Part shown: positions 3,353-63,676 of the stretch, one piece after another
Layout: each line of letters starts with the position of its first letter
Numbering within the stretch: position 1 is the first letter of the stretch
Assembly (NCBI GenBank): GCA_023898725.1
Contig: CP060236.1
Span: 807,086 to 871,085 of the forward strand
Source of the DNA: Alphaproteobacteria bacterium
GTDB lineage: Bacteria > Pseudomonadota > Alphaproteobacteria > JAUHZC01
Direction: 5' to 3'
DNA length: 64,000 nt
Program-made: the position numbers and the translations under genes
The notes under the pieces: model-generated
Told to the model about the DNA's origin: nothing
Databases searched by the model: none
The model's input: the letters and a program-made list of their open reading frames with translations, nothing else

Positions 3353-3814
3353 TTAGGCCTTTTGCGTGTCGGATAGCTTTAACGTTGGTTTTTCTATTTT
3401 CATCCGGTTGCGCGCATTGGCTTGTGTGTGCGCAAAGACATCTGGATGCCAGAGTTGAAACGTTGCTCCCCGACCTACAAAGGCCACATGCGTATCAAGT
3501 CCCGCGTGCTCGATGAGCTCCTGCGGGAGAGTGATGCGCCCATCACTGTCTATTGGTAATTGATGGGCGTCTGCAAAAATCGCGGACGCCATGTCTTCTT
3601 GTGAATCTGAGAATAAATCCATGGAATCAATACTTTGGCTCATGCGCTCCATACGTGACATGGTGCAGCCCTCAATAGACGCGTGCTTGTATGAACGAAA
3701 GAGAATTAATCCTTGAAAACTTTCCGCTGAAAGAGTTGCGCGAAACTGGGCCGGAACGGAAATACGCGCTTTTTTGTCGAGCTTATTGACGTATGTGGAA
3801 AGAAAAAGAGCCAT
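3353..3814 (-). CDS. mraZ: transcriptional regulator MraZ
   Basis: 153 aa with the duplicated MraZ fold and first gene of the dcw cluster. Confidence 0.85.
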   Translation of the reverse strand: MALFLSTYVNKLDKKARISVPAQFRATLSAESFQGLILFRSYKHASIEGCTMSRMERMSQSIDSMDLFSDSQEDMASAIFADAHQLPIDSDGRITLPQELIEHAGLDTHVAFVGRGATFQLWHPDVFAHTQANARNRMKIEKPTLKLSDTQKA

Positions 3815-4180
3815 TTGTTTCGCAAGCGTTGAAGTTATTCACAGTGAGTTTTTGAAGCACTTTAATGGTAATAAGTGCCTATTTATGGGATATCATGGGA
3901 TAGTATGGGTGTCAACGGGAAAACCTGGAATTTGGACTATGCACAGACTTATCCACAACCCGATACTGCCACCAAAACCCCTATAAAACAGGGGTTTTGA
4001 TAAAAATGTCACACACGTAACAATATTAATGCCATCCAAGTAATTAATAAGTATTAAAAATTGATTAAAATTTTATATAATCAACTATATACTGTTTAAA
4101 AACACCTAATAAACGAATCTTTGATGCAGAAATGCGTAAATATCCATATTTAGGCCATATCTATACTAGAAAGGGAACGT

Positions 4181-4633
4181 ATGACATACACGCACCGTCC
4201 TCTTATTTTAACGGACAGGATCGTTCTAAAAGATCTTCTGTTGGACCTTGGTTATCCTCAAACAGAGGAATCTCTCACAACCATTATGCAAACATACACA
4301 AATGAGAGGGAGTATTACGCTTATGTAGCTATGAGTGAAGGCATTGTATGTGGAGTCATTGCATGGCACATGCGCCGGCTATTTGTTAATGCGCGTCTAA
4401 AAGTAAGCATTGAGGGTCTTGTTGTTAATCCTCGCATGCATAGGCGTGGTGTCGGTCAGTACCTTATGGGGATTGTAGAAGTTTTTGCCCGGAATGAGGG
4501 CGTTTGGGTGATTGATTTGACCTCAGGAAGGTATCGCGCCTCCTCAGGCGCCCATGCATTTTATCAAAGTCTGGGGTATGACAACACGGGCATGGGGGAA
4601 AAGATTTATCTCCGTAAGATCATAAAGCAATAG
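4181..4633 (+). CDS. GNAT family N-acetyltransferase
   Basis: 150 aa containing the acetyl-CoA binding motif (VNPRMHRRGVGQYLM matches the Q/RxxGxG/A motif). Confidence 0.6.
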   Translation: MTYTHRPLILTDRIVLKDLLLDLGYPQTEESLTTIMQTYTNEREYYAYVAMSEGIVCGVIAWHMRRLFVNARLKVSIEGLVVNPRMHRRGVGQYLMGIVEVFARNEGVWVIDLTSGRYRASSGAHAFYQSLGYDNTGMGEKIYLRKIIKQ

Positions 4634-4673
4634 GCCATTGGTCTGTTGCTGCCCTGATAGTACTACCCTGGTG

Positions 4674-5312
4674 CTATGAGTGCTCTTTAGCTGTCAGCTG
4701 ATTAGCAAAAGAATGGTTTACATCTCGGTGATTTTCTTCATCCGCACGCACAGCCAAAACCAGCTCACGCAGACGCGCCCCTTTGGGTAATCCCCAGTAC
4801 GCGACAGCAATAGCAGGAGCAAGGGTGTTTGGAATTTGCCCACTATCTATTTCATGGAGATACTGTGTGTATGAAATAACAGCTTCTTCTTCAAGGTAGC
4901 CAACAATGCGGTGTGCTGTGCGCTCGGAGACAATATACAGGATGAAGTATGCTGTAAAAAAGAAAAATTGGACAAGGATGATCAAAAGGCGCTCAAACCA
5001 GGAAGGTTGAGCAATCTCAATGAATGTCATCAGATGCATGCGTTCATTTTCTGCTTCACTTAGTAAGATTTTAATCCAGCCGTTGTCATCGGCACACCGT
5101 CGTAAACTTTTGAGGTGTTGAAACATTCCCCCCACCATGCCTGGAACGGCTGCGACTGTTTCAAGAACAACAGCCCTATGACCGTAACGTTTTTTAAAAA
5201 ATGTGTCTGCACAAAAACGCAACATTTGCACAACCCAATACGCAAAAGAATCGCAGAAGCCCTGGCGCGGGTGGGAGGATTTCTGTTTCTTTGTGGGAAG
5301 AGATTTTTTCAT
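4674..5312 (-). CDS. aox: alternative oxidase (cyanide-insensitive di-iron ubiquinol oxidase, AOX)
   Basis: 212 aa carrying the diagnostic AOX di-iron motifs [34 protein letters not shown] and RADEENHRD. It is the size of a bacterial AOX with no mitochondrial presequence. The N-terminal ~25 residues may be over-extended. Confidence 0.75.
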
Positions 5313-5556
5313 TTTTTACCTCAACTTTGCGAAATGACCTATCTACTCTATGAATAAGGATAGAAATTAACGCAGATAAACACAAGAAAATAGTCAACCA
5401 TGTGTTGGATTCTGCTGTTTTGTGCAGGCAGGCGTATGATTTAAAGATTATAAAAAAAATAATTTAACAAATAAATAAAAACAAATAAGTATCACTTGTC
5501 TCTTCAAAAAAATCTTTTTCCTGTTAGTCTGCAGGAAATTCGAAAGAATACGATCT

Positions 5557-6825
5557 ATGACTAAACGGTTAACTTTTTCTACATTTACAGCCTGGCTCAG
5601 CCTAAGTCTTTTTTTTCTGTATGTTTATGTGTTGCGCGTCAGTTCAGGCATGATGTTTGTTCAGCTGCGTTCAGAGTTTTGTATGACAGCAGGACAGTTC
5701 GGTATTTTTGGGGCCTGTTATTTTTATGCATACGCTCTTGCGCAGGTTCCTATGGGAGTTCTATTGGATCGCTTAGGTATTCGCTGGGTGGTTCTTTTTT
5801 CACTGATTCTGACTCTTATGTCGACGATTATTTTTGCCTATGCCGATACACTCTGGTTGGTTTACGGCAGCCGCGCGTTATTGGGTCTTGGATCGGCAGC
5901 CGTGTTGATGTCGTGCCTCAAGTATGTTTCTGATACGATGCCTGAAAAGTACTTGGGAACATTCATGGGGTTGAGTTTAGGTGTTGGGGTCATGGGTGCT
6001 TTGGGAGCAGGGAGTAATATTCCGGATTTTTTAGAGCTGTACTCATGGCGTTCTGTGCTTATGATGGTGGCATATGGAGGAATCCCTCTGTTTGCTTTGC
6101 TCATGATAGTCATTCCAGCCAAGAAATCCCCACACGGGGGAACCCCAACCGAACCTTTTAATCTGCGGGCGATTATTAGTGTTGTGTGGGCAGTCATTAC
6201 GCATCGCCACATTATGCTATATGGTTTTTTGTCAATTGGGGTTTACACACCTTTGGCTGTTTTGGCAGATTTGTGGGGCCCTGCTTATTTCACGATCAAG
6301 TTCGATTGGACGGCTGATCAAGCAGCTAAAGCAGCGACACGCATGTATGCAGGGCTCATGCTTGGCAGCATCGTTTTACCCTGGATTAGTCGCATACTTC
6401 ATGACTATAACAGGGTGATTCAGTTTTCTACATTTGGGATTTTCTTTTTGATGATAAGTATCCTGTACATCCCGAATATTTCAGCCATTACTTTTGCTGC
6501 AGGACTTGTTGGTATTGGCATACTGTGTGGTGCGGAAATGCTTTGTTTTACAGGAGCCACGCACTATACAACTGGGAAAACTTCAGGAACAACCATTGGG
6601 ATTGTGAATACGTTTAATATGCTGGGTGGAGCCATATTGAGCCAACTGATAGGAAAAATTCTTGACTGTAGTTGGGGTGGAGGGATGATTGGCAATATAC
6701 GCGTCTATACAGTCGCGGACTATACAACAGCACTTGTTGTAATCATTTGTGCAGTTGCTGGGTGTGCAGTGGGGACCTTCTTTTTGCAGAAACCCGGGGC
6801 CCCTGGAGCTGACTGTGTGAGGTGA
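5557..6825 (+). CDS. MFS transporter (paralog 1 of tandem pair)
   Basis: 422 aa with ~12 predicted TM segments and MFS motifs (GVLLDRLGIRW). Confidence 0.8.
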   Translation: MTKRLTFSTFTAWLSLSLFFLYVYVLRVSSGMMFVQLRSEFCMTAGQFGIFGACYFYAYALAQVPMGVLLDRLGIRWVVLFSLILTLMSTIIFAYADTLWLVYGSRALLGLGSAAVLMSCLKYVSDTMPEKYLGTFMGLSLGVGVMGALGAGSNIPDFLELYSWRSVLMMVAYGGIPLFALLMIVIPAKKSPHGGTPTEPFNLRAIISVVWAVITHRHIMLYGFLSIGVYTPLAVLADLWGPAYFTIKFDWTADQAAKAATRMYAGLMLGSIVLPWISRILHDYNRVIQFSTFGIFFLMISILYIPNISAITFAAGLVGIGILCGAEMLCFTGATHYTTGKTSGTTIGIVNTFNMLGGAILSQLIGKILDCSWGGGMIGNIRVYTVADYTTALVVIICAVAGCAVGTFFLQKPGAPGADCVR

Positions 6826-6860
6826 ACAGGGAAGAAGCCGACAGCAGAAAAAAATCCATA

Positions 6861-8189
6861 ATGAAGAAGCTCGTGCGTGCAGTTGACGGCACTGCTATTT
6901 TAGTTTGTAATTACACTCGGTGTTCGTTGATAATTTTTGTGCAAAAAAAACACTTTTTTCCAGTATTAGCTGCCTGGATCAGTCTCAATCTTTTTTTTCT
7001 TTACATGTACGCTATTCGTGTGAGTACGGGTGCTATGTTTGCTCAACTGCGAACAGAATTTTCCATGACAGGTGAGCAGTTTGGGCTATTTGGATCATGT
7101 TATTTATACGCGTACTCCCTTGCCCAAATCCCTATGGGGATTTTATTGGATAGATTTGGGGTGCGTACAATTAGTCTTTTTTCTGTTTTTTTAACGCTTC
7201 TGGCGGTCTTTTCTCTGGCAAATGTCACGTCGCTAAATTTGGCCTATGTGAGTCGATCACTTTTGGGATTGGGTTCTGCCGCAGTAATGATGTCATGTTT
7301 GAAGTTCACATCAGATCAGTTACCGATACATCTGCGTGGTATTTTTATGGGAGCGGGCTTGAGTGTCGGTGTTGTGGGTGCGTTGAGTGCGGGAATGGGA
7401 GTTCCTGAGCTTCTCAAGGTTATGAGCTGGCGTGTGGTGCTTAATAATAGCTTGTTGATAGGTGCTCCGATTGCCTTTCTTTTGCTTACATTTGTTCCTA
7501 AAAATCTCTCTAATCAAGAGGAAAAGAAAGCAAATACCCCTGTTTTTTCTGGTGTTGGCCGACATTTGAAAGGTGTACTGACTAATCCGTCAATTATTCT
7601 GTATGGATGCATGTCTATTGGCGTATATACACCGTTGGCAACAATTGCTGACTTGTGGGGGACGGCCTTTTTATCGGCAAAATATGGATGGGATAACGCA
7701 CTTGCTTCGCAAACAATTGTACAAATGTATGTGGGTTTGATCTTGGGTGCTGTTTTGCTTCCCTGTGTGAATCGGTACATTAATAATATTAATGCGATGC
7801 TACGGATGGCTATCCTTGGAATATTGATACTATTTTGTGTAATTTTGTATATTCCTGGTTTGAGCATTGGGTTCTTGGTTGGGTTCTTGGTAACAATTGG
7901 TATGTTATGCGGTGCAGAAATGATGTGTTTTAATGGTGCTTCCCAGTATGCTACACCCCAAACATCAGGGTTAATCATTGGCATAGTGAACACATTTAAT
8001 ATGCTGGGCAGTGGTCTTTTGAATCAAACTATTGGAAAAATGCTTGACATGAATTGGGATGGAACAATGGACAATGGATTGCGTGTGTACAGTGCTGAAA
8101 ATTACACAGTTGCTTTATCGGTTTTGGTTGCCACTTCTGCGCTGTGCTTTATGATTTCCTTTTTCTTGAAAAGCCCTTCTAAAAAATAG
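6861..8189 (+). CDS. MFS transporter (paralog 2 of tandem pair)
   Basis: The N-terminal region aligns closely with the upstream paralog (FFLYMYAIRVSTGAMFAQLRTEF versus FFLYVYVLRVSSGMMFVQLRSEF). The ORF track starts at a GTG at 6822 that overlaps the upstream stop, so the ATG at 6861 was chosen. The start is uncertain. Confidence 0.75.
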   Translation: MKKLVRAVDGTAILVCNYTRCSLIIFVQKKHFFPVLAAWISLNLFFLYMYAIRVSTGAMFAQLRTEFSMTGEQFGLFGSCYLYAYSLAQIPMGILLDRFGVRTISLFSVFLTLLAVFSLANVTSLNLAYVSRSLLGLGSAAVMMSCLKFTSDQLPIHLRGIFMGAGLSVGVVGALSAGMGVPELLKVMSWRVVLNNSLLIGAPIAFLLLTFVPKNLSNQEEKKANTPVFSGVGRHLKGVLTNPSIILYGCMSIGVYTPLATIADLWGTAFLSAKYGWDNALASQTIVQMYVGLILGAVLLPCVNRYINNINAMLRMAILGILILFCVILYIPGLSIGFLVGFLVTIGMLCGAEMMCFNGASQYATPQTSGLIIGIVNTFNMLGSGLLNQTIGKMLDMNWDGTMDNGLRVYSAENYTVALSVLVATSALCFMISFFLKSPSKK

Positions 8190-8308
8190 CTTCCGCCTCC
8201 CCGATGCCGGAGTCGCACCAGGAAAAACCTTGACCGTGCAGGATAATTTTCATAACTTTATACCCGAAGCTCTCTTTCTTATAGGCGATTAGGCTATCCC
8301 CGAAGTTT

Positions 8309-8803
8309 TTAAGCATTTATGAATTTACCTTCATACCTTATAATATCATGCTTGATGGCTGATCCCCACCGATAACCCTGTGTTCTATCAGACATATTGT
8401 GGGATGCGCGTACCACGCGGTGACAGGGAATGAAATAACTAATGGGATTGCATCCAAGCGCAGTGCCTACGGCACGTACGGCTGTGGGCTTTCCAATGGC
8501 TTCTGCAAGCTGTCCATATGTTGTAACGGTTCCTCTTGGTACATTTTTCACTGCAGACCACACCTTTTTTTGAAACGGTGTTCCAGCAGCCGCAAGGAGC
8601 ATTTTTTTGATGTCACTGAGGGAACAGTTCTTTGGTGTGGGCGAATCTGTCCTATGTGTCTGTTTATGAAAAGCCCTAATAACACCACTGTACTCGCCAA
8701 ATCCTGCGAAAATAATATGTCCGTCGCGAGTATAAATAGTGTGAAGGGGGGACTGCGTTTCTGGCACTGTGTTTGTTGTAATAAAGTAGTTTTCTGTCAT
8801 CGT
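8309..8803 (-). CDS. ogt: methylated-DNA--protein-cysteine methyltransferase (Ogt/MGMT)
   Basis: Active-site motif IPCHRVV and helix-turn-helix YGQLAEAIGKPTAVRAVGTALGCNPISY. The start was trimmed to the internal Met (MTENYF) to avoid overlap with asnB. Confidence 0.8.
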   Translation of the reverse strand, partial: TMTENYFITTNTVPETQSPLHTIYTRDGHIIFAGFGEYSGVIRAFHKQTHRTDSPTPKNCSLSDIKKMLLAAAGTPFQKKVWSAVKNVPRGTVTTYGQLAEAIGKPTAVRAVGTALGCNPISYFIPCHRVVRASHNMSDRTQGYRWGSAIKHDIIRYEGKFINA

Positions 8804-15294: not shown

Positions 15295-15855
15295 CTAGGA
15301 TTGCAATTTTTCAATTGGGATTAGAGCCTGAAGGGCTAATTTTAGTTTTTGATTAAGAGTGGCGTTCGTTAGTTTGCCAGATTGATTGTCAAAATTATCA
15401 TTAAAGCTACCGATAGAAAGCGTAGATTTGACGATTGCTCCAAAAAATGGTGCCGATTCCTGAGCGATCCTCATCACGCTTGACCCCCCTTTTATTCCAA
15501 CAGAAGCAGATAATATTACCATGGGCTTGTCTTGAAAAACACGCATATTGATGCGTGATATCCAGTCAAGAATATTTTTGAATGCCGTCGTATAGCACCC
15601 ATTATGCTCAGCATAAGAAATGATCAGAGCATCGGAAGCGCCAATCGTATCAAAGAAACGATGTGCAAGAGCGGGAATTCCACTGTCTTGTTCCCGATCG
15701 ATGCTGTAAATTGGCATTTCAAAATCATTCAAGTCGATAATTTCAATATCTGCGCCTTGTAAAATTTCACTTTTTATAAGAGCCGAAGCATAGTGAATAA
15801 GCTGATTATTAAGGGATTTTTTGCTATTGGTGGCAGCGAACGCTACAATTTTCAT
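15295..15855 (-). CDS. NAD(P)H-dependent FMN reductase / flavodoxin-like oxidoreductase
   Basis: MKIVAFAATNSKKSLNNQLIHYA is a flavodoxin-like fold N-terminus typical of the SsuE/ArsH/NADPH-FMN reductase family. The start was set at the MKIVAF Met. Confidence 0.65.
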   Translation of the reverse strand: MKIVAFAATNSKKSLNNQLIHYASALIKSEILQGADIEIIDLNDFEMPIYSIDREQDSGIPALAHRFFDTIGASDALIISYAEHNGCYTTAFKNILDWISRINMRVFQDKPMVILSASVGIKGGSSVMRIAQESAPFFGAIVKSTLSIGSFNDNFDNQSGKLTNATLNQKLKLALQALIPIEKLQS

Positions 15856-16218
15856 TGTTCTCTCTCTTTCTTGAGGGTTTATTCTGTTGCGCAATGAACC
15901 CCTTTTTCAAACAATACTGTATGAATTCTCAGTCATGCAATACCCCATACTTATTATAGTGAAAAAAACTTTTCTGTGGTCAATCTTCACTCTTTCCTCC
16001 ACTTTATTACAGAAAATTTCTGGACGAAACTCCTCACAAATGTAAAAACTGGAATCGTCACTAAGCGAAGATGCTGGAAATTACAAAAAATAATTTTTTG
16101 ATAATTACTCCCAACCTTAAACATGAGGTCTTTTACTGATATAAATTAAATTTTTATTTTTAAATAAAAATTTAATACAACTCAAATACATTAATCTGCA
16201 TTAATAATTCTTAATCTT

Positions 16219-23203: not shown

Positions 23204-24901
23204 ATGTATAGATCGCATCGCATTCTGACTCGATTTTTATGGCACATAGGTAGCATACGCATGTTCACGCAAGCGCTTTACCAAGATAAAAGCCAAATTT
23301 TTTACTGGTATGTGATTATTTTTGCTGTGGGTATAGGGGTTTATCAGTGCTTTTTGTGTTTGTGGTCTTCTTTGGTCGCATGGGGTGCCGTTGGCTGCAT
23401 TGCGGTGCGCATCATGTATGATCAGAAACTATGTCACGGAGTTGGGGTGCCTCTTGCGCTTGTTGGCGGTATTCTTCATATGCATTGGCATAAAAGTATG
23501 CGCTATGCCAATACTTTAGTGGATAAGGCCTATGTAGAAAAGGGTGTGTGGGATGTGGATTCTTCACAAATATGGGAAAAACAATGCCAAATGGTGTTGC
23601 GTCGTAAAGAGTGGAAGATACAGGCGTGGACATCACGGAATCGCTGTTCTCAAGAAGGGCAACGTGTTTTTGTGCATGGGCTTGTTTCTCCTGTGTTCAG
23701 CGGGAAAAAATATGGATTCTTTGATCGTAGCGATTACTTGCGGTGGCAGGGTATTCAGGGGCAGATGAAAATTTGGCACATACATACACTTCCTTCATTT
23801 TTGGGATCGCCGGCGCCGCAATTACCCTCCTTGCGTATCCGTATTATAAAGCGTGCAGAGGACCTCACCGTCTATCATCCCCATGTGGCAGGTGTTTATC
23901 AAAAACTGGTCCTTGGAAAGGGGATGGTTAATCAAAAAGTACGATGCCATTTTGGAAACACGGGTATTTCTCATGTACTGGCTGTTTCGGGATTACACGT
24001 TAGTTTATTAGGTGGCGTCATTGCAGCAAGTATGCGTGCCTTGACACTTATATGGGGACGATCATGGTATGCACGGGCGTTTATGGTTGCAGGCGCTATG
24101 ATGAGTCTTCTTGTGGTGGGGGGGTATTGTTGGCTGTGTTGGCCATCAATAACAGCTGTGCGTGCGACAATTGCAGCAGCGTTTCTGACGTTTTTTTCCA
24201 TCTGCCAACGTCAATTGTGCCTGATATGGGCAAGTCTTGGTGGGGGGCTGGGCGTACTCTTGGTGTGGCCAGAGGCTCTTTTTAGGCCAGGCTTTCAAAT
24301 GTCGATCTTGTGTGTGCTCACGTTAGCTGGAATGCACACTCGTCGCGTAGGTGTTCCGGCATACAGGGACTCTGTGTTGCAAGAATTTCCTATTCGAACG
24401 CTTAGCAACCTTTCTGTTACCCTGCGTTTGAGCGCTCTTACGGCTGTCTTTGCTTCTCAAATCCCTGGAGGTGGAGTTCTGGGGATTGGGGTATTGGCAA
24501 ATTTTGTGGCAATTCCATTAATGGGGTTTGTGCTTATGCCAATTCTGCTTATCGATGTCAGTCTCGTGTGTGTTGGGATTGAACCGAATGAAAGTTGGAA
24601 TAGGGTGTTGGTGTTGATATTTCGATTGTTATTTCTCATTGGGGAGCAGTTCGACCGGTTAAATGTTCTGGCAATGGTGCGTGTTGAGGGGCTTTCTTGG
24701 GTAAGCATGCTTGCTGCAGCAGCCGGAGTTTGTTGGTGTTCGTTGTGGCGTCATCACTGGTATTTATGGGGTCGTGCCTTTTTTTTCATTCCTTTTTGTG
24801 AGCTAATTTGGCAGGCCTTGCGCAAAGCTGCGTACTTTTCTGAGGGCTACGGATTCAATCTGACGAATGCGTTCGCGGGAAATTCCAAATTTTTGACTTA
24901 G
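23204..24901 (+). CDS. comEC: ComEC/Rec2 family competence membrane protein (short form without a C-terminal beta-lactamase-like domain)
   Basis: Competence-domain motif ISHVLAVSGLHVSLLGG and multiple TM helices. It is only 565 aa and its 3' ~100 bp overlaps the convergent rpoH. Confidence 0.7.
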   Translation: MYRSHRILTRFLWHIGSIRMFTQALYQDKSQIFYWYVIIFAVGIGVYQCFLCLWSSLVAWGAVGCIAVRIMYDQKLCHGVGVPLALVGGILHMHWHKSMRYANTLVDKAYVEKGVWDVDSSQIWEKQCQMVLRRKEWKIQAWTSRNRCSQEGQRVFVHGLVSPVFSGKKYGFFDRSDYLRWQGIQGQMKIWHIHTLPSFLGSPAPQLPSLRIRIIKRAEDLTVYHPHVAGVYQKLVLGKGMVNQKVRCHFGNTGISHVLAVSGLHVSLLGGVIAASMRALTLIWGRSWYARAFMVAGAMMSLLVVGGYCWLCWPSITAVRATIAAAFLTFFSICQRQLCLIWASLGGGLGVLLVWPEALFRPGFQMSILCVLTLAGMHTRRVGVPAYRDSVLQEFPIRTLSNLSVTLRLSALTAVFASQIPGGGVLGIGVLANFVAIPLMGFVLMPILLIDVSLVCVGIEPNESWNRVLVLIFRLLFLIGEQFDRLNVLAMVRVEGLSWVSMLAAAAGVCWCSLWRHHWYLWGRAFFFIPFCELIWQALRKAAYFSEGYGFNLTNAFAGNSKFLT

Positions 24902-25687
24902 AACCTCTAGCGTTTTTGGTTTTTCTTGGCAAATTCTGTGCATGATGATCGCACGTTCGCGGGCGCTGAGTTGTGACAGAAATGACTTAGCCAGATTGAG
25001 ACGATAGGTATGTTCATTTGTTGCGATAACATACTCTTCAGGGTTGAGAGCATTGTCTTCAGTGATGTCTTCAAACGTTGATTCGTCTCCATCACCTCCT
25101 GAACTCAGGGGTGTTTGAAGAGAGAAATCACGTCCTCCCAGACGTTGCTCCATGTTGGCAACTTCTTGTGTGGTGACACCAAGTTCACTAGCAATAGATT
25201 GACATTGTGAGGAAGATAGCGTTTGGCTATCTTCACCCTGAATTTTTGCTTTTAACCGTCGCAATGTAAAAAAAAGTTTTTTTTGTGCCCGCGTTGTGCC
25301 AACCTTGACCAAAGACCAATTGTGAAGAGCGTACTGTTTTAGCTGTGCATGAATCCACCATGTGGCATACGTTGAAAATCGAGCACCCTGCGCCGCATCA
25401 AAATTCCGTACCGCAAGGGAAAGCCCCACTGTTGCTTCGGAAATAAGCTCCGCCATGACAAAATTATATCCACTATACCCACCGGCAATTTTTATGGCAA
25501 GCCGCAGGTGCGTGTTGATCAGTGCTTGGGCAGCTTCAATGTTACCATTCTCGACCCACATTTTGACGAGGACCTCCTCCTCATGAGGCGTCAAGAGGGG
25601 AAATTTATTTACACTCCGAATGTAATGAGAGAGGGAGTCTTCACCAGACAGCGGCGTGATCGGTCGTTTGAACTTGCTAAGATCCAT
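24803..25687 (-). CDS. rpoH: RNA polymerase sigma-32 factor RpoH
   Basis: 294 aa with sigma-70 regions 2 and 4 and the RpoH box-like segment (QRKLFFTLRRLKAKI). Confidence 0.85.
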   Translation of the reverse strand: MDLSKFKRPITPLSGEDSLSHYIRSVNKFPLLTPHEEEVLVKMWVENGNIEAAQALINTHLRLAIKIAGGYSGYNFVMAELISEATVGLSLAVRNFDAAQGARFSTYATWWIHAQLKQYALHNWSLVKVGTTRAQKKLFFTLRRLKAKIQGEDSQTLSSSQCQSIASELGVTTQEVANMEQRLGGRDFSLQTPLSSGGDGDESTFEDITEDNALNPEEYVIATNEHTYRLNLAKSFLSQLSARERAIIMHRICQEKPKTLEVLSQKFGISRERIRQIESVALRKVRSFAQGLPN

Positions 25688-35064: not shown

Positions 35065-36400
35065 GAATGGCATCACACAAATAGTAAACGTATGTGTAAC
35101 GGGAACTTTAAAACTTTTCTTGCAAATATCGTAGTATCCCCCTAAGAGACCGAAGATTACGGGTTGATGAGAGACTAGAATCATTGTCCCGCTGACCATT
35201 TTTTATGGGAGTATAGAATTAATTGTTATTCTGTCCTCGATAATTAGATTACCAGGCCCTAAATCCATTTTTTGAATCGCCTTTCTGGGTCTTTGTGTGG
35301 ATAGATAAATTTACGTAACAAATCGGTTGCTATGTTTCCAAACGTTTGCAATCCTATTAGGAGGAAGCGTTTGATTAGCAAAAATTTTAGCAGAGTTGAT
35401 AGGGAAGCATGGTATCCTTGGGTGGGGGAGATTGTTACACCCTCTCCCATAATCCAAATAAATGATAGGATCCGTGGATAATATTTAACGCCTAATCCAT
35501 AGGGGTGTTACTAATTTTCCATTTTTACACACGCTTAATTTACCTCCCCACTTATCAACTCAGATAGCAAATACAGGCCTTTTTCCTGTGGCATTCCGTT
35601 CCCACATCTTTATGAGTGTTGTGACAAGAGTGTTCACCTTTTTCTTTTGTTCCTTAAGAATATCTCTAGCTTTTTGTGTTATATGCAGGACAATAAATCT
35701 ACCAAGTGCTTAAACGTATAGTATTTTTATGTGTGTATAGACACTTTCTCATTCTTTTGTGTAAGGGTTGCCGGGAATAGGTAAAAAATCCTCTAGCCTA
35801 TAGACTTTTATAAGTTTTTGAATTCTTTATTTTTTCGTACCTTCTTGCTTTGTTTAAGAGATTTTCTAAGCGATGCCATCGTTGCTATTGTTTGAGCTGT
35901 AATCCTCCTCGTGAAAAGTTTATTCGGTTGTGCAGTTTCGTGAGGATGGTCTTTTTAAAAGATTTTTGAAGTAGTGTAGTTTAGCCCCTAGCTGGTAGGT
36001 AGGAACAACTGAACTTTCTTTTTTTTCAGGATCAGGTGGGCTTTTTTTAGATAATTGCGTGATTCACACAAAAAATAAGAATGTATCGTTCTTGATACAC
36101 GATCAATCAGTTGCTTCTGACCTTCGCATAGAGATCGTAGCTATCCCATGAATGAATTCGGTGTATCTCGGGCACATTACTAGGGGATCACAGAACCCTT
36201 TTGAATTATATGGGCATAAGTAGATACTCCACGTATGCACATGCTAGTTGTCGAAATCATGAAGCCTTCGTTTGTAGGGGTGTTAAAGTCAGCATCAGAT
36301 GTCGTATCTGCCCATAAAAAAATCCCCCACCAAATTAAGGAAGGGGATATCATATTCGCTAATTATGAGGCAATAGGTTCAGTGACAGAATCCTTATTCT

Positions 36401-44400: not shown

Positions 44401-45663
44401 TCAGGTTTGCTCCCAAAGATCAGGTGATATAAGAGCATGTGGTGCGCGCGCGCGCCGTGTACGCTCGGCATCAAATAAGGCTGTTGGCATTACATACGCT
44501 TTTCCACTGTTGCTGCGCAGGACAACTCCTGCTTTATGTTGCTGTAGTTGCTGTTGGGGTGCTAAGTTGAGAGCATGCATCCCATTGCGCAAGGTGCGCT
44601 CAAATGCCTCGTTACTGGTCCGGCGTGGATTTGCGTTGTGAATAAGGCGACGAATGGCATCTGGGCTGAGGCTGTGAGGATCACCCTTCTCTGGGGAATA
44701 GTCAATTCCCATCCGGATAAAGCGATCCCCTAGGTTAATTTGCAGGACCCTTTCCATATGCCGTGATGTAATTTCCTGTGGGTTTAAGGTGCTTTGATAA
44801 CCATGTGGAGTATTAAGATATCCAACAGCGATCATTCCGAGGGAATCCCAGGAACACCCCGTTTCATCTTTGAACGCAAGGAGGGAGGGTAGGGCTGTGT
44901 CTGGAATTATAGGAACAATGTCACGCAAGCGCCTGGTCACATCACCACGGCTAACAATAGCACGTGATTTAAATAACCCTTTTGTCGCTGATGTCGAGGC
45001 AATCACATCAACCAAAGTATAATCGTCCCCGGGGTTTGATCGTGCTTTTCCAGAAGCAAAAAGGTATTCGGCATTAGTACCACGAATACGCGTATGAAAG
45101 TAAATAGGTTTTTCAATGGAGCTTAGATAAGCCTCGCCAAAAATTTTTTGAAGTGTCCGGGTGAGGCAATCCCTATCAAACACGTGCCTGGGAGGGAAAC
45201 ACAAAAACCCACTTTTGCGCTTTAATAAATCGGGAAGGTTGTTTCGTAATAAGTTTTCAACATCAGTCACAGTGCGGTATTTTCCATTATTTTTTCGTGA
45301 GAAAAAAGCAGCAGCAAGAAAACTACCTGCAAATGAGGCACCTGCTCCAGCAGAAAATAACTCACCAATAGGTAATCCTGCTGCTGCTTCAATATATCGC
45401 AACTCCTGAAGAGCTGAAAAGCTAGAAGTCAGACCCGGAGCAATATATAAGAGCTTGTTGATAACGCTTGGAACAAGAGGTTTTCCTGAATCTGGGGGTA
45501 GTACTGTTCTTTCAAGAGTGCTAAGCCCCCCTAAATGGACGTGCTCTGAGGAAAGTGCGGCTATTGCCATTGATGCGTTAATAGGATTCATAAATACCTG
45601 CAGATTGGTTGTTACCCAGAAAGCGAGTATTGTTAGAATAAGGACATTTTGAATAATAACCAT
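44401..45663 (-). CDS. hypothetical protein (N-terminal hydrophobic segment, 420 aa)
   Basis: Long ORF convergent with hflX and no confidently recognised domain. Patatin-like motifs were checked and are not convincing. Confidence 0.4.
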   Translation of the reverse strand: MVIIQNVLILTILAFWVTTNLQVFMNPINASMAIAALSSEHVHLGGLSTLERTVLPPDSGKPLVPSVINKLLYIAPGLTSSFSALQELRYIEAAAGLPIGELFSAGAGASFAGSFLAAAFFSRKNNGKYRTVTDVENLLRNNLPDLLKRKSGFLCFPPRHVFDRDCLTRTLQKIFGEAYLSSIEKPIYFHTRIRGTNAEYLFASGKARSNPGDDYTLVDVIASTSATKGLFKSRAIVSRGDVTRRLRDIVPIIPDTALPSLLAFKDETGCSWDSLGMIAVGYLNTPHGYQSTLNPQEITSRHMERVLQINLGDRFIRMGIDYSPEKGDPHSLSPDAIRRLIHNANPRRTSNEAFERTLRNGMHALNLAPQQQLQQHKAGVVLRSNSGKAYVMPTALFDAERTRRARAPHALISPDLWEQT

Positions 45664-60484: not shown

Positions 60485-63400
60485 GTGATTTTCACAAAAA
60501 AATTGATGAGTACACTAATAATGACAAAAAACTTCGCATATCTTTTGTTTACTTCTGTTTTTTTACTGCCGATTTCTGCAAGCCAATCGCTACTTATCCC
60601 CGGTATGGACGCCTGTTATAATCAGGCATTGCTTGAATCTGAAATTGAGGCTGGTGAAGATAGCACCAAGGACTTGTATGATGCTCTGCGACCATCTCGT
60701 CTACCTGTTGCCCAGCAAGTTGCAAATCTAACTGTGCGAACAGCAGAATGGTGTGGCGGTTATGCAGATGGAACATATCTTTTTACATGCTTTGATCGTG
60801 ATATGTCTCAGGATTCTCGTCATGGACACGCAAATGCCCTGGATGCGGTTGCCTTGTGGTTGTTTCGTGAACCAGGTGAGCCCATCACCCGTGCGACAAG
60901 TCCATCTTCCCGTATAGATGTGCAAAAAATGGGAAAAATTGTGCGTATTGTTCTCGATTTATTTGCCGGTCACATAAAAGAAGAAGATCTGTCCCTGGTT
61001 TTGGGTCGTGTGCTAGAGAAAAGTATCAAAAAGCCTATTTCTTTTGAGGTTTTGCAGTCTTATGAGCTTTATCGTCGACTTGATTACGCTTATGATCATC
61101 TCAAAAATATGGCGCAAGAACTTGATCCTGACGAAGTCAGTGAGTACGAGGATGAGCAAGATCGCCTGCTCAGGCTATTCAGATCTGAGAGATATACACC
61201 AGAAAGTTTTCTCAAGATTACAAAAAAAGCAGACATGTGGAGCAAAGAAAAATCTACCTTTTTCCCTTATGATCCTTCTGTAAAAATTCTTAATTTTATA
61301 AGACTGCGTGATCGCAAAACGACTTTCGAGAAACTTTTGCAGCATATGAAGTCTCCATGGTCTCATGGTGATTATGATCATGATGCAATTGATAAGACTC
61401 AAGCGCGTTATGAGGAAATCACCTCTGAGTATTCTTCATACGGTCGATTTCTTACCACTATCAACACCACACAAACTCACCGTCAGTATGGGGCTCATTT
61501 GTTGCTGCATAATATTTGCGTAGCCGCACACGAAGCAAAAGCACGTGGTCGCGAAGCGCAAATTGCGCTTTTACAAGTTCTCGCTGCCTTTGCCGTGCAT
61601 CGAGCCACAGAACCAAAAGATCTAGAGAAATTTTATGATGAGCTTGGGCTTCGCATGACCTTTTCTGGAAAATCGGCTTTTAGTATGGATGACTATAATA
61701 ATCTTACAAGTAGAATCACTCAGTCTCCAGAGGCGTATCGTGATCTTAGTGAAGAGGAACGTCAAAATTTATCAACATTCTCAGTGTTGGTTTCTGCGTC
61801 AATGCTTCCTCTCAAAACTTACGATAGGGTGACGGTTAGAAGCCCTCTTTTGCAGGAGCGGACATTTTCAAATTGCTATGAAGTCGCCTTTGAAAACTTT
61901 TTGCGTATTATGTGCATGAGCTTTGTTCCGGGTCGTGGTTGGATTTCAGACACACGTCTTTTTCCTGATCACTCTCTGGTACAGAAGTATTTTGCTGAGG
62001 AGGCTTTTGGAACAGTGCGAGCAGCGAATACAGAAGATGCATCAAATACTTTTGCAACAATGATTTCGGGAATTCCAAATGTTCGGTACGTTAAAAAAGG
62101 TTCTGAAGTAATACCATCAGTGCTCAACACACTCTATTTATTAAGTACGATATGGTGCCTTGATGAGCCGGAAGAATCAGATGATGAAGAATCAGATGCG
62201 ACAGAACTCATCACCGGTGCATTTAAGTACATTGAGAATGGAATCAACAGGCATTTTCTGCCATATGGAAAGAGCATTTCACTGCGTGCTGAAACTGATC
62301 TTTTTGAAGGAAGAGGCGACTCTGACAGCGTACATGTAACTGTAATGGAGGAGGAAACCCCTGTGCAAGAAGGGGTGATGCATATATATGAAAAGCACGC
62401 TGAAACAAAGGTGACCACACCCTTTAAGGATAGTGATGATTGGCGGACACTCTTGATTGCACATACAAAAAAAATATGGGAAGCCAGTGATGATTGTCCT
62501 TTGGAATTTGTAAGCACCCTTAGTGCAGAACAGATAGATACAATGGGGGAATCTGTGCCATTGAATGTTTTGCGTACTTTTGTGGACAAATCGAACATGC
62601 ATGTTTTAGACGTGATGGTTGCACAAGTTTCCACTCTCGTGCGGGGGCTGCAGGATGAGCATACCCATGAATATGCCAAACGTATGCTAAGGAAGATAGC
62701 AACCACTGTTGAAAGACAGAGTGACGGGCACACATCAATGGTTTTTACAGAAAAACTACGTGCCGGGATTAAGGAGAATGTGATCCCGCTAGACCTTCTA
62801 TCCTTTTTGGTTGACGCCTGTCCAGATGTTGCAAAAGTTTTTGCAAATGGATGGGAAGATTTCTTTCAAAGTCCTTTTTATAAAGCATGTATTAATAGGG
62901 ATGAGGAATTATTATTAATAATGAATAAAGGATTTGAAAAAGAAAAAGGTACTCTTTTTCTGTCACACTATATTTACGGGAGTGACGGGAATTCTTTGAG
63001 TGATGATGTTCTATGGGGGATTGAAAAACTATCTCATATTTATGGACTTTATTTAACGAATAGTTTTGCTATATTACCGAGTAAACTCGATCATGTAATG
63101 CATTCTCTACAAAAATTGAAAAATCTAGGGATGGCTACATTAGCGGTTTCATCAGAAATTTTCGATGATAGAGATTTGCTCGCCTATTTTGCAACGAGAT
63201 TACCAAATGCTGAAAAAACTTCCTACCAGATTGAATGTGCAGGTGAAAATCGTTCAGCAAAAATAAACTCGTGGGAAATTTGCGCACGTATGCAGAAAGA
63301 AAACCCTTTTTTACGGCTACACGTTTCGGGAAATAGAGAGCAAATAATGCTTGTTGCTCGGGCCCTGGCGTCTTACGGATGTATTGATGGAAACGATTAT

Positions 63401-63676
63401 ACCTTGCATAAAAGATCGGGAGTGTCATTATCCTTCGTTGCCTATACGAAAGATTTGCGCACAACAATAGCTTCTGAACAAGAGGCAGCAGGTGGGGAAG
63501 AAGCCTACAGAGAAAAACTTCGCAGTGGTTTTTATGAGGATCAGTATCCAGGCGTATATGCCTTGTATACAGATTCATACGCAGCAAGAGGCTTTCCTGT
63601 TGTGGACGAATCCCTTTTTGCAACCAGAGAAAGAGCCGCGAGTCTATCAGCCGCTGCTGAGGTCGATGACGTGTAG
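60485..63676 (+). CDS. hypothetical large secreted protein (1063 aa), no recognisable domain
   Basis: Signal-peptide-like N-terminus (MSTLIMTKNFAYLLFTSVFLLPISASQS) and an uninterrupted 3.2-kb ORF with uniform composition. No catalytic motifs identified by eye. Confidence 0.55.
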   Translation: MIFTKKLMSTLIMTKNFAYLLFTSVFLLPISASQSLLIPGMDACYNQALLESEIEAGEDSTKDLYDALRPSRLPVAQQVANLTVRTAEWCGGYADGTYLFTCFDRDMSQDSRHGHANALDAVALWLFREPGEPITRATSPSSRIDVQKMGKIVRIVLDLFAGHIKEEDLSLVLGRVLEKSIKKPISFEVLQSYELYRRLDYAYDHLKNMAQELDPDEVSEYEDEQDRLLRLFRSERYTPESFLKITKKADMWSKEKSTFFPYDPSVKILNFIRLRDRKTTFEKLLQHMKSPWSHGDYDHDAIDKTQARYEEITSEYSSYGRFLTTINTTQTHRQYGAHLLLHNICVAAHEAKARGREAQIALLQVLAAFAVHRATEPKDLEKFYDELGLRMTFSGKSAFSMDDYNNLTSRITQSPEAYRDLSEEERQNLSTFSVLVSASMLPLKTYDRVTVRSPLLQERTFSNCYEVAFENFLRIMCMSFVPGRGWISDTRLFPDHSLVQKYFAEEAFGTVRAANTEDASNTFATMISGIPNVRYVKKGSEVIPSVLNTLYLLSTIWCLDEPEESDDEESDATELITGAFKYIENGINRHFLPYGKSISLRAETDLFEGRGDSDSVHVTVMEEETPVQEGVMHIYEKHAETKVTTPFKDSDDWRTLLIAHTKKIWEASDDCPLEFVSTLSAEQIDTMGESVPLNVLRTFVDKSNMHVLDVMVAQVSTLVRGLQDEHTHEYAKRMLRKIATTVERQSDGHTSMVFTEKLRAGIKENVIPLDLLSFLVDACPDVAKVFANGWEDFFQSPFYKACINRDEELLLIMNKGFEKEKGTLFLSHYIYGSDGNSLSDDVLWGIEKLSHIYGLYLTNSFAILPSKLDHVMHSLQKLKNLGMATLAVSSEIFDDRDLLAYFATRLPNAEKTSYQIECAGENRSAKINSWEICARMQKENPFLRLHVSGNREQIMLVARALASYGCIDGNDYTLHKRSGVSLSFVAYTKDLRTTIASEQEAAGGEEAYREKLRSGFYEDQYPGVYALYTDSYAARGFPVVDESLFATRERAASLSAAAEVDDV

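Follow-up and report, generated by a model that had tools for sequence, protein, structure and literature searches.

The 64-kb window, that is, the whole stretch of 64,000 nucleotides that was analysed, contains an ORF of the alternative oxidase (AOX) family, aox, at positions 4674..5312 on the minus strand. It encodes 212 aa, with an ATG start and a stop codon inside this range, and a Shine-Dalgarno sequence (GAGGT, 5318-5322, minus strand) is located 5 nt upstream of the ATG. A GNAT gene (4181..4633, plus strand; Pfam Acetyltransf_1) lies next to the 3' end of aox. The original prediction described these two genes as divergent, which is wrong: GNAT is on the plus strand and aox on the minus strand, so that they are convergent (tail to tail), with stop codons 40 bp apart. 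Beyond the GNAT gene, the dcw cluster starts with mraZ-rsmH-ftsL-ftsI. On the other side of aox there are two plus-strand genes with the Pfam domain MFS_1, namely MFS1 (5557..6825) and MFS2 (6822..8189, or 6861..8189 in public gene calls, which give 442 aa). They share 49% identity (E=7e-138) and are real paralogues, as had been proposed; they had also been said to follow aox, but they are transcribed away from it. The aox and MFS1 genes are divergent across an AT-rich spacer of 244 bp (5313..5556; GC about 0.37-0.39), which presumably holds the promoters of both. The aox gene itself appears to be monocistronic. In total, five MFS_1 genes were found within the 64-kb window, at 5557, 6822, 17917, 27953, and 47482.

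The aox protein matched the Pfam family PF01786 (AOX) far beyond chance (E=4.6e-84; 281.8 bits against a cut-off of 22.7), and the match covered profile positions 10-216 of 216, which is full length. No NCBIfam model was matched by the protein. The only sequence matches in the PDB were entries of Trypanosoma brucei TAO (E ~1e-52), and the alignment with 3vv9 (E=1.8e-52) showed 51% identity over 190 aligned residues. All four AOX di-iron motifs that had been read in the ORF were found, and its coordinates, 4674-5312, are correct to the base. As placed by the TAO alignment, all on the minus strand, motif 1 consists of 11 residues (residues 50-60, nt 5133-5165); motif 2 is NERMHL (residues 89-94, nt 5031-5048), which was also read directly from the DNA; motif 3 is LEEEA (residues 140-144, nt 4881-4895), after which come S147 and Y148; and motif 4 is RADEENH (residues 189-195, nt 4728-4748). 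The conservation of the iron-ligand Glu and His residues had been singled out as a check on the assignment. All six of them are kept in the alignment to TAO, namely E51, E90, H93, E141, E192, and H195, which are equivalent to E123, E162, H165, E213, E266, and H269 of TAO, respectively. None of the 30 aligned AOX sequences deviates at these ligand columns.

Further residues are also conserved relative to TAO, including Y148 (Y220), W173 (W247), Y172, R46 (R118), R32, and D36, as well as N89 and D191 (Asn161 and Asp265 in TAO). The sole change at the listed sites is conservative, with T219 of TAO replaced by Ser147. We take Y220, W247, R118, Asn161, and Asp265 of TAO to be catalytic or quinol-site residues, the roles of which were reportedly described by Shiba et al. 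in 2013. The alignment of 30 bacterial AOXs (29 homologues and the query) contains 68 invariant columns, and every one of these family-invariant columns is retained in the aox protein. The length and the N-terminus of the protein agree with those of homologues of 207-212 aa. An AlphaFold2 model, for which the alignment with the 29 homologues was used as input, is all-helical with nine helices (mean pLDDT 85.8, pTM 0.82). The Foldseek search of this model against the PDB returned TAO in all of the top 14 matches (TM 0.86-0.88, rmsd ~2.1 Å). Judged from its sequence, aox is an intact gene for an alternative oxidase of the bacterial type.

Comparison with known oxidases places the protein in the same way. 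The bacterial AOXs (Novosphingobium, Vibrio fischeri, and marine metagenomic forms) are, like aox, short (~210-230 aa) and lack an N-terminal extension, and they have the full AOX Pfam domain and all of the di-iron motifs. Thousands of proteobacterial homologues are 60-84% identical to the aox protein. TAO (PDB 3VV9, 3VVA, 5ZDP, and 9KUN) has the same E-E-H-E-E-H ligands as aox and the same Tyr220, Trp247, and Arg118, and it superposes on the aox model with a TM of 0.87 and an rmsd of 2.1 Å. However, TAO has an N-terminal arm of ~80 residues and a mitochondrial targeting region, both of which are absent from aox, and the loop after helix 1 is 8 residues shorter in aox. PTOX, Coq7, and bacterioferritin-like bundles share the four-helix-bundle di-iron scaffold. 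Coq7 and bacterioferritin were only remote structural matches (E >0.1, TM 0.35-0.47), and in the Foldseek search the non-AOX bundles scored 13 orders of magnitude worse than AOX. By sequence and predicted structure, aox therefore belongs squarely with AOX.

The gene is already known and annotated, and the enzyme family to which it belongs is a familiar one. NCBI/nr contains a protein of 100% identity (P0001), which is encoded on a contig of 1,107,460 bp and carries the name "MAG: alternative oxidase [Alphaproteobacteria bacterium]"; the locus is also present in two Logan assemblies. The first bacterial AOX was that of Novosphingobium aromaticivorans in 2003 (Stenmark & Nordlund), and its abundance in ocean metagenomes was recognised in 2005 (McDonald & Vanlerberghe), as stated in PMC5156696 and PMC10955580. 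At least 8000 homologues of the aox protein were scored as candidates, all of them significant. An exhaustive search of representatives at 50% identity yielded 2347 AOX clusters at E≤1e-3, of which 394 also pass E≤1e-30. The description of AOX as patchily distributed in bacteria agrees with textbook knowledge, but AOX is also a very abundant family.

The base composition of aox is ordinary. Its GC is 0.451, whereas 41 genes of the window average 0.457±0.027; its GC3 is 0.423, compared with 0.404±0.035; and its codon-usage distance is 0.20, compared with 0.18±0.09 for the same genes. No tRNA, repeat, or mobile-element gene flanks aox. Among the matches listed, the closest AOX homologue is P0003 (84% identity, on a 1-kb contig) and the next ones have 72-75%, all from MAGs or metagenomes. 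The citrate synthase GltA of the same organism has best non-self matches of 78% and then 68-70% identity. Although the AOX-bearing and the GltA-bearing relatives in this comparison come from different assemblies, aox is not conspicuously closer to or further from its homologues than a housekeeping gene, and the similar distances fit vertical descent in an under-sampled lineage. The named close AOX matches among those listed belong to Hyphomonadaceae, Ferrovibrio, Alkalimonas, and Haliea. These mix alpha- and gammaproteobacteria, so that AOX has evidently moved among Proteobacteria over long times.

A neighbour-joining tree was reconstructed from 173 sequences, comprising the 40 closest homologues and the 50%-identity representatives, over an alignment of 190 columns. 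The query fell into a clade of 45 proteins, 44 of which have at most 260 aa and none of which has 290 aa or more. The long AOX forms, presumably eukaryotic ones with an N-terminal extension, join only at a node of 162 leaves. The protein is short, and the deep nodes of such trees are poorly resolved. Since aox nests among the short bacterial forms, a recent transfer from a eukaryote to a bacterium was rejected. The original prediction had raised a horizontal origin of the gene, and this was not supported: GC, GC3, and codon usage are ordinary, and in the tree aox is a normal bacterial-type AOX.

The surroundings of other AOX genes were surveyed with 80 further AOX loci taken from metagenomes. 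A neighbour was defined as the nearest ORF of at least 100 aa within 600 bp on each side, which gave 138 neighbours of 87 AOX genes, and these were scanned against Pfam. The ORF calling was naive (longest first, both strands), and a few shadow ORFs are possible, but it still could not hide a recurrent MFS partner of 400 aa. The 138 neighbours belong to 118 different families, the commonest of which are sensor-kinase domains (HATPase_c, 5; PAS, 4). MFS_1 was found twice among the 138 immediate neighbours of these 87 other AOX genes, and GNAT families are absent from the 25 most frequent families of this set. Rrf2 and the NO-response protein NnrS were each seen twice (2/138). There is no MFS or GNAT neighbour at the AOX loci L003, L004, L007, L008/9, L010, L011/12, and L016/17, and tblastn of MFS1, MFS2, and GNAT gave no match in any of the nine closest AOX loci that were examined. 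In L003 (2287-9197), the translations read by eye place the AOX gene (P0029) beside an 806-aa orphan and HemD-like, HemX-like, and HemY-like ORFs; this is another AOX dropped into an unrelated housekeeping neighbourhood.

The MFS genes were also followed in the opposite direction. The MFS1 family is sparse, with 65 matches, mostly in Logan assemblies. No AOX was found in five contexts of MFS homologues (L013, L014, L015, L019, and L020). L013 is syntenic with the window: its MFS1 and MFS2 are 62% and 66% identical, respectively, and it has ogt at the other end. No AOX is present in the 1.2 kb upstream of its MFS1, where the DNA is repetitive and ORF-poor. In L013 (1224-4424), L014 (5265-7098), and L015 (8001-9855), homologues of MFS1/MFS2 (48-66% identity) are followed by a Flavodoxin_2/FMN_red gene, partly overlapping. 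These genes are NAD(P)H:quinone-reductase-like and the pairing of MFS with a flavoprotein is conserved, so that the MFS family recurs beside quinone-linked redox enzymes. The FMN_red gene of the window (15295..15894) was considered as an orthologue of these MFS-adjacent genes and rejected, as tblastn gave no match at 1e-5. Because there are five MFS_1 genes in 64 kb, a chance adjacency of MFS to aox is likely. The MFS and GNAT neighbours of aox are incidental and are not functional partners.

The regulatory DNA of aox was searched for recognizable sites. In a promoter/terminator scan of 3800-8400, no sigma-70-like site was found in the aox-MFS spacer, and the counts matched those of shuffled sequence. 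By eye, a perfect TATAAT can be seen on the aox strand, but it was not accepted as a promoter because of its poor -35 and the AT-rich DNA. There are no significant inverted repeats or palindromes in the spacer, only matches of A/T runs. In Vibrio fischeri, AOX is a NO-resistant oxidase that is induced by NO and repressed by NsrR (Dunn et al. 2010, as given in PMC5156696), and this link between NsrR and aox had been a prediction in PMC1274295, where the NsrR consensus is gATGyAT-N5-ATrCATc. No ATGYAT-N5-ATRCAT site with at most 2 mismatches was found in 5313-5556, and the window as a whole has 16 matches to the NsrR box, compared with a shuffle expectation of 15.4. A 23-bp NsrR consensus of the E. 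coli type scored at best 12 of 22 in the spacer, below the background maximum of 15 in the window. No Rrf2 gene was found among the annotated ORFs of the window.

Some relatives look different in this respect. An Rrf2 gene overlaps the AOX start in the relative L011 (7544-8639) / L012 (6256-7351). A common element was also seen upstream of AOX in two other loci, as AAAATGCATTTATTCATACATTTTTAA in L004 (~1860-1900) and as ACACATTTTATTCACGCATTTTTAA in L003 (~5880-5960). It resembles NsrR half-sites (ATGCAT ... ATACAT), with a spacing of 6 nt rather than 5 nt. The Rrf2, NnrS, and PAS/histidine-kinase neighbours (the last 4-5 times) suggest that AOX is tied to NO or redox sensing in particular lineages. 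The AOX of V. fischeri has the NsrR link, whereas aox lacks both an NsrR box and a nearby Rrf2 gene; moreover, the alphaproteobacterial lineage to which it belongs has a host-associated look. Neither the missing NsrR and Rrf2 nor this lineage changes the kind of enzyme.

Two other parts of the window deserve mention. A stretch of ~1.3 kb (35065-36400) separates the D-Ala-D-Ala carboxypeptidase gene from rplI. Its ORFs do not exceed 63 aa and Rfam gave no match at the gathering threshold, so it might be what is left of a gene, or else an RNA that has escaped annotation. A comEC-like ORF (23204..24901, plus strand) and a sigma-factor-like ORF (24803..25687, minus strand) are convergent with a 99-bp overlap in the mechanical ORF calls, so that one end of this pair is probably mis-set; the second ORF is a candidate rpoH from its sigma-factor-like N-terminus.

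Taken together, the aox ORF very probably encodes a functional, stand-alone bacterial-type alternative oxidase, as far as can be read from the sequence. By homology, the product would be a monotopic di-iron carboxylate protein of the inner membrane and, as in characterised homologues, it would form a dimer on the cytoplasmic face. It would take electrons from ubiquinol and reduce O2 to water at the di-iron centre, with no proton pumping, and electrons would thereby avoid both the bc1 complex and the haem-copper oxidase. Respiration and the re-oxidation of NADH and quinol could then go on when the cytochrome path is blocked by NO, cyanide, or sulfide, and the bypass might also serve when the quinone pool is over-reduced or the cytochrome branch is saturated. 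The gene would be read from the 244-bp spacer with its own Shine-Dalgarno sequence, back to back with the MFS pair. The ubiquinol oxidase activity and the insensitivity to cyanide, NO, and sulfide are inferred by analogy with the T. brucei TAO structure and with the AOXs of V. fischeri and N. aromaticivorans, as treated in PMC5156696 and PMC10955580. By homology, the activity would also be sensitive to SHAM. A stress-bypass role is likely on the same grounds. The rest of the respiratory chain of the organism is encoded outside the 64-kb window.

Other explanations of the locus have to be weighed against this reading. It is extremely improbable that aox is a decaying or non-functional relic. 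Gene decay is common in reduced genomes, and the organism looks small-genome and host-associated, with a 1.107-Mb contig and many orphan secreted proteins; yet the ORF has no interruption, a normal length, and a Shine-Dalgarno sequence, and it retains all iron ligands and all family-invariant columns together with a confident structure model. A recent horizontal acquisition, from another bacterium or from a eukaryotic host, inserted with the dcw cluster on one side and the MFS pair on the other, is unlikely. The gene has the GC, GC3, and codon usage of its flanks, its homologues are about as distant as those of GltA, it nests with the short bacterial AOXs and not with the long eukaryote-type forms, and mobile-element genes, tRNAs, and repeats are absent on either side. 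Such a transfer would agree with AOX contexts that differ in every lineage examined (118 families among 138 neighbours), with the syntenic L013, which lacks AOX beside MFS1, and with named top matches that mix alpha- and gammaproteobacteria, the last of which shows that AOX has moved between lineages over evolutionary time.

It had been suggested that AOX, GNAT, and the two MFS genes are one accessory redox or detoxification module. In such a module, the genes could be co-regulated from the shared spacer, and the transporters might, for example, move a respiratory poison or a redox-cycling compound whose effect AOX bypasses. The single 244-bp spacer between the divergent aox and MFS1 could allow common control, and the three relatives in which a homologous MFS is followed by a quinone-reductase-like FMN_red/Flavodoxin_2 gene are a further, weak point. 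Such a module is nevertheless very unlikely and the suggestion was not confirmed, since MFS_1 makes up 2 of 138 AOX neighbours and GNAT stays outside the top 25 families, since none of the five MFS-homologue loci has an AOX, the syntenic L013 (MFS1-MFS2-...-ogt, 62-66% identity) included, and since the tblastn searches of the nine closest AOX loci were negative. In addition, the GNAT gene is convergent and is not co-transcribed with aox, and the spacer holds no common operator-like repeat. That aox is a NO-stress gene of the V. fischeri type, which NsrR (Rrf2 family) would repress and nitric oxide would induce, is improbable. The precedent of V. fischeri (PMC5156696; predicted in PMC1274295), the Rrf2 gene directly upstream of AOX in L011/L012, and the two occurrences each of Rrf2 and NnrS among AOX neighbours speak for it. 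On the other side are the spacer, with no box at up to 2 mismatches and a 23-bp score below background, the chance-level count in the window, and the annotated window ORFs, which include no Rrf2 gene. A functional, stand-alone AOX thus remains the preferred reading.

Several features of the organism might bear on the role of such an AOX. The GltA of the organism groups with MAG proteins in 30 of 30 cases, and not with Paracaedibacteraceae or Odyssella, the GltA proteins of which are among many matches at 65-66% identity. A patatin-like ORF (44401..45663) scored 26.6 bits, under the Pfam cut-off of 27.7. Many orphan ORFs have signal-peptide-like N-termini (12261, 16219, 29781, 39978, 46282, 49852, 51307, and 52453), as does a 1063-aa orphan ORF at 60485..63676. 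The region 53517-57155 contains three tandem paralogues (53528..54109, 54535..55116, and 55542..57155), spaced 1007 bp apart, with DNA identities of 99% and 83% over the first 300 nt; all of them have signal-peptide-like N-termini and no Pfam match. The third paralogue has an unusually high GC (0.56) and carries about seven tandem repeats of 102 nt (34 aa) at 55794-56507. In the relative L013, there is an ankyrin-repeat gene with a faint Pfam match. The 1.1-Mb contig, the five MFS genes, the patatin-like ORF, the orphan secreted paralogues, and the ankyrin-repeat gene of L013 suggest a small-genome, host-associated alphaproteobacterium.

As it stands, aox is of little import, bacterial AOXs having been known since 2003 and this protein being annotated in NCBI. 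The useful outcomes are negative ones: MFS and GNAT stand beside aox by chance instead of forming a module with it, and nothing points to a recent horizontal transfer. More speculatively, and with doubt prevailing, the AOX might reflect adaptation to a eukaryotic host in which the bacterium lives, where it would keep respiration going despite NO or sulfide from the host, or it might act as the main quinol oxidase, or even the only one, in a streamlined chain. If true, respiration arranged in this way would be unusual for an endosymbiont-like alphaproteobacterium, and a host-associated reduced genome with AOX as its main oxidase or NO defence would be a data point on the respiratory flexibility of symbionts. 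It would also have some relevance to the debate on the alphaproteobacterial ancestry of mitochondrial AOX.
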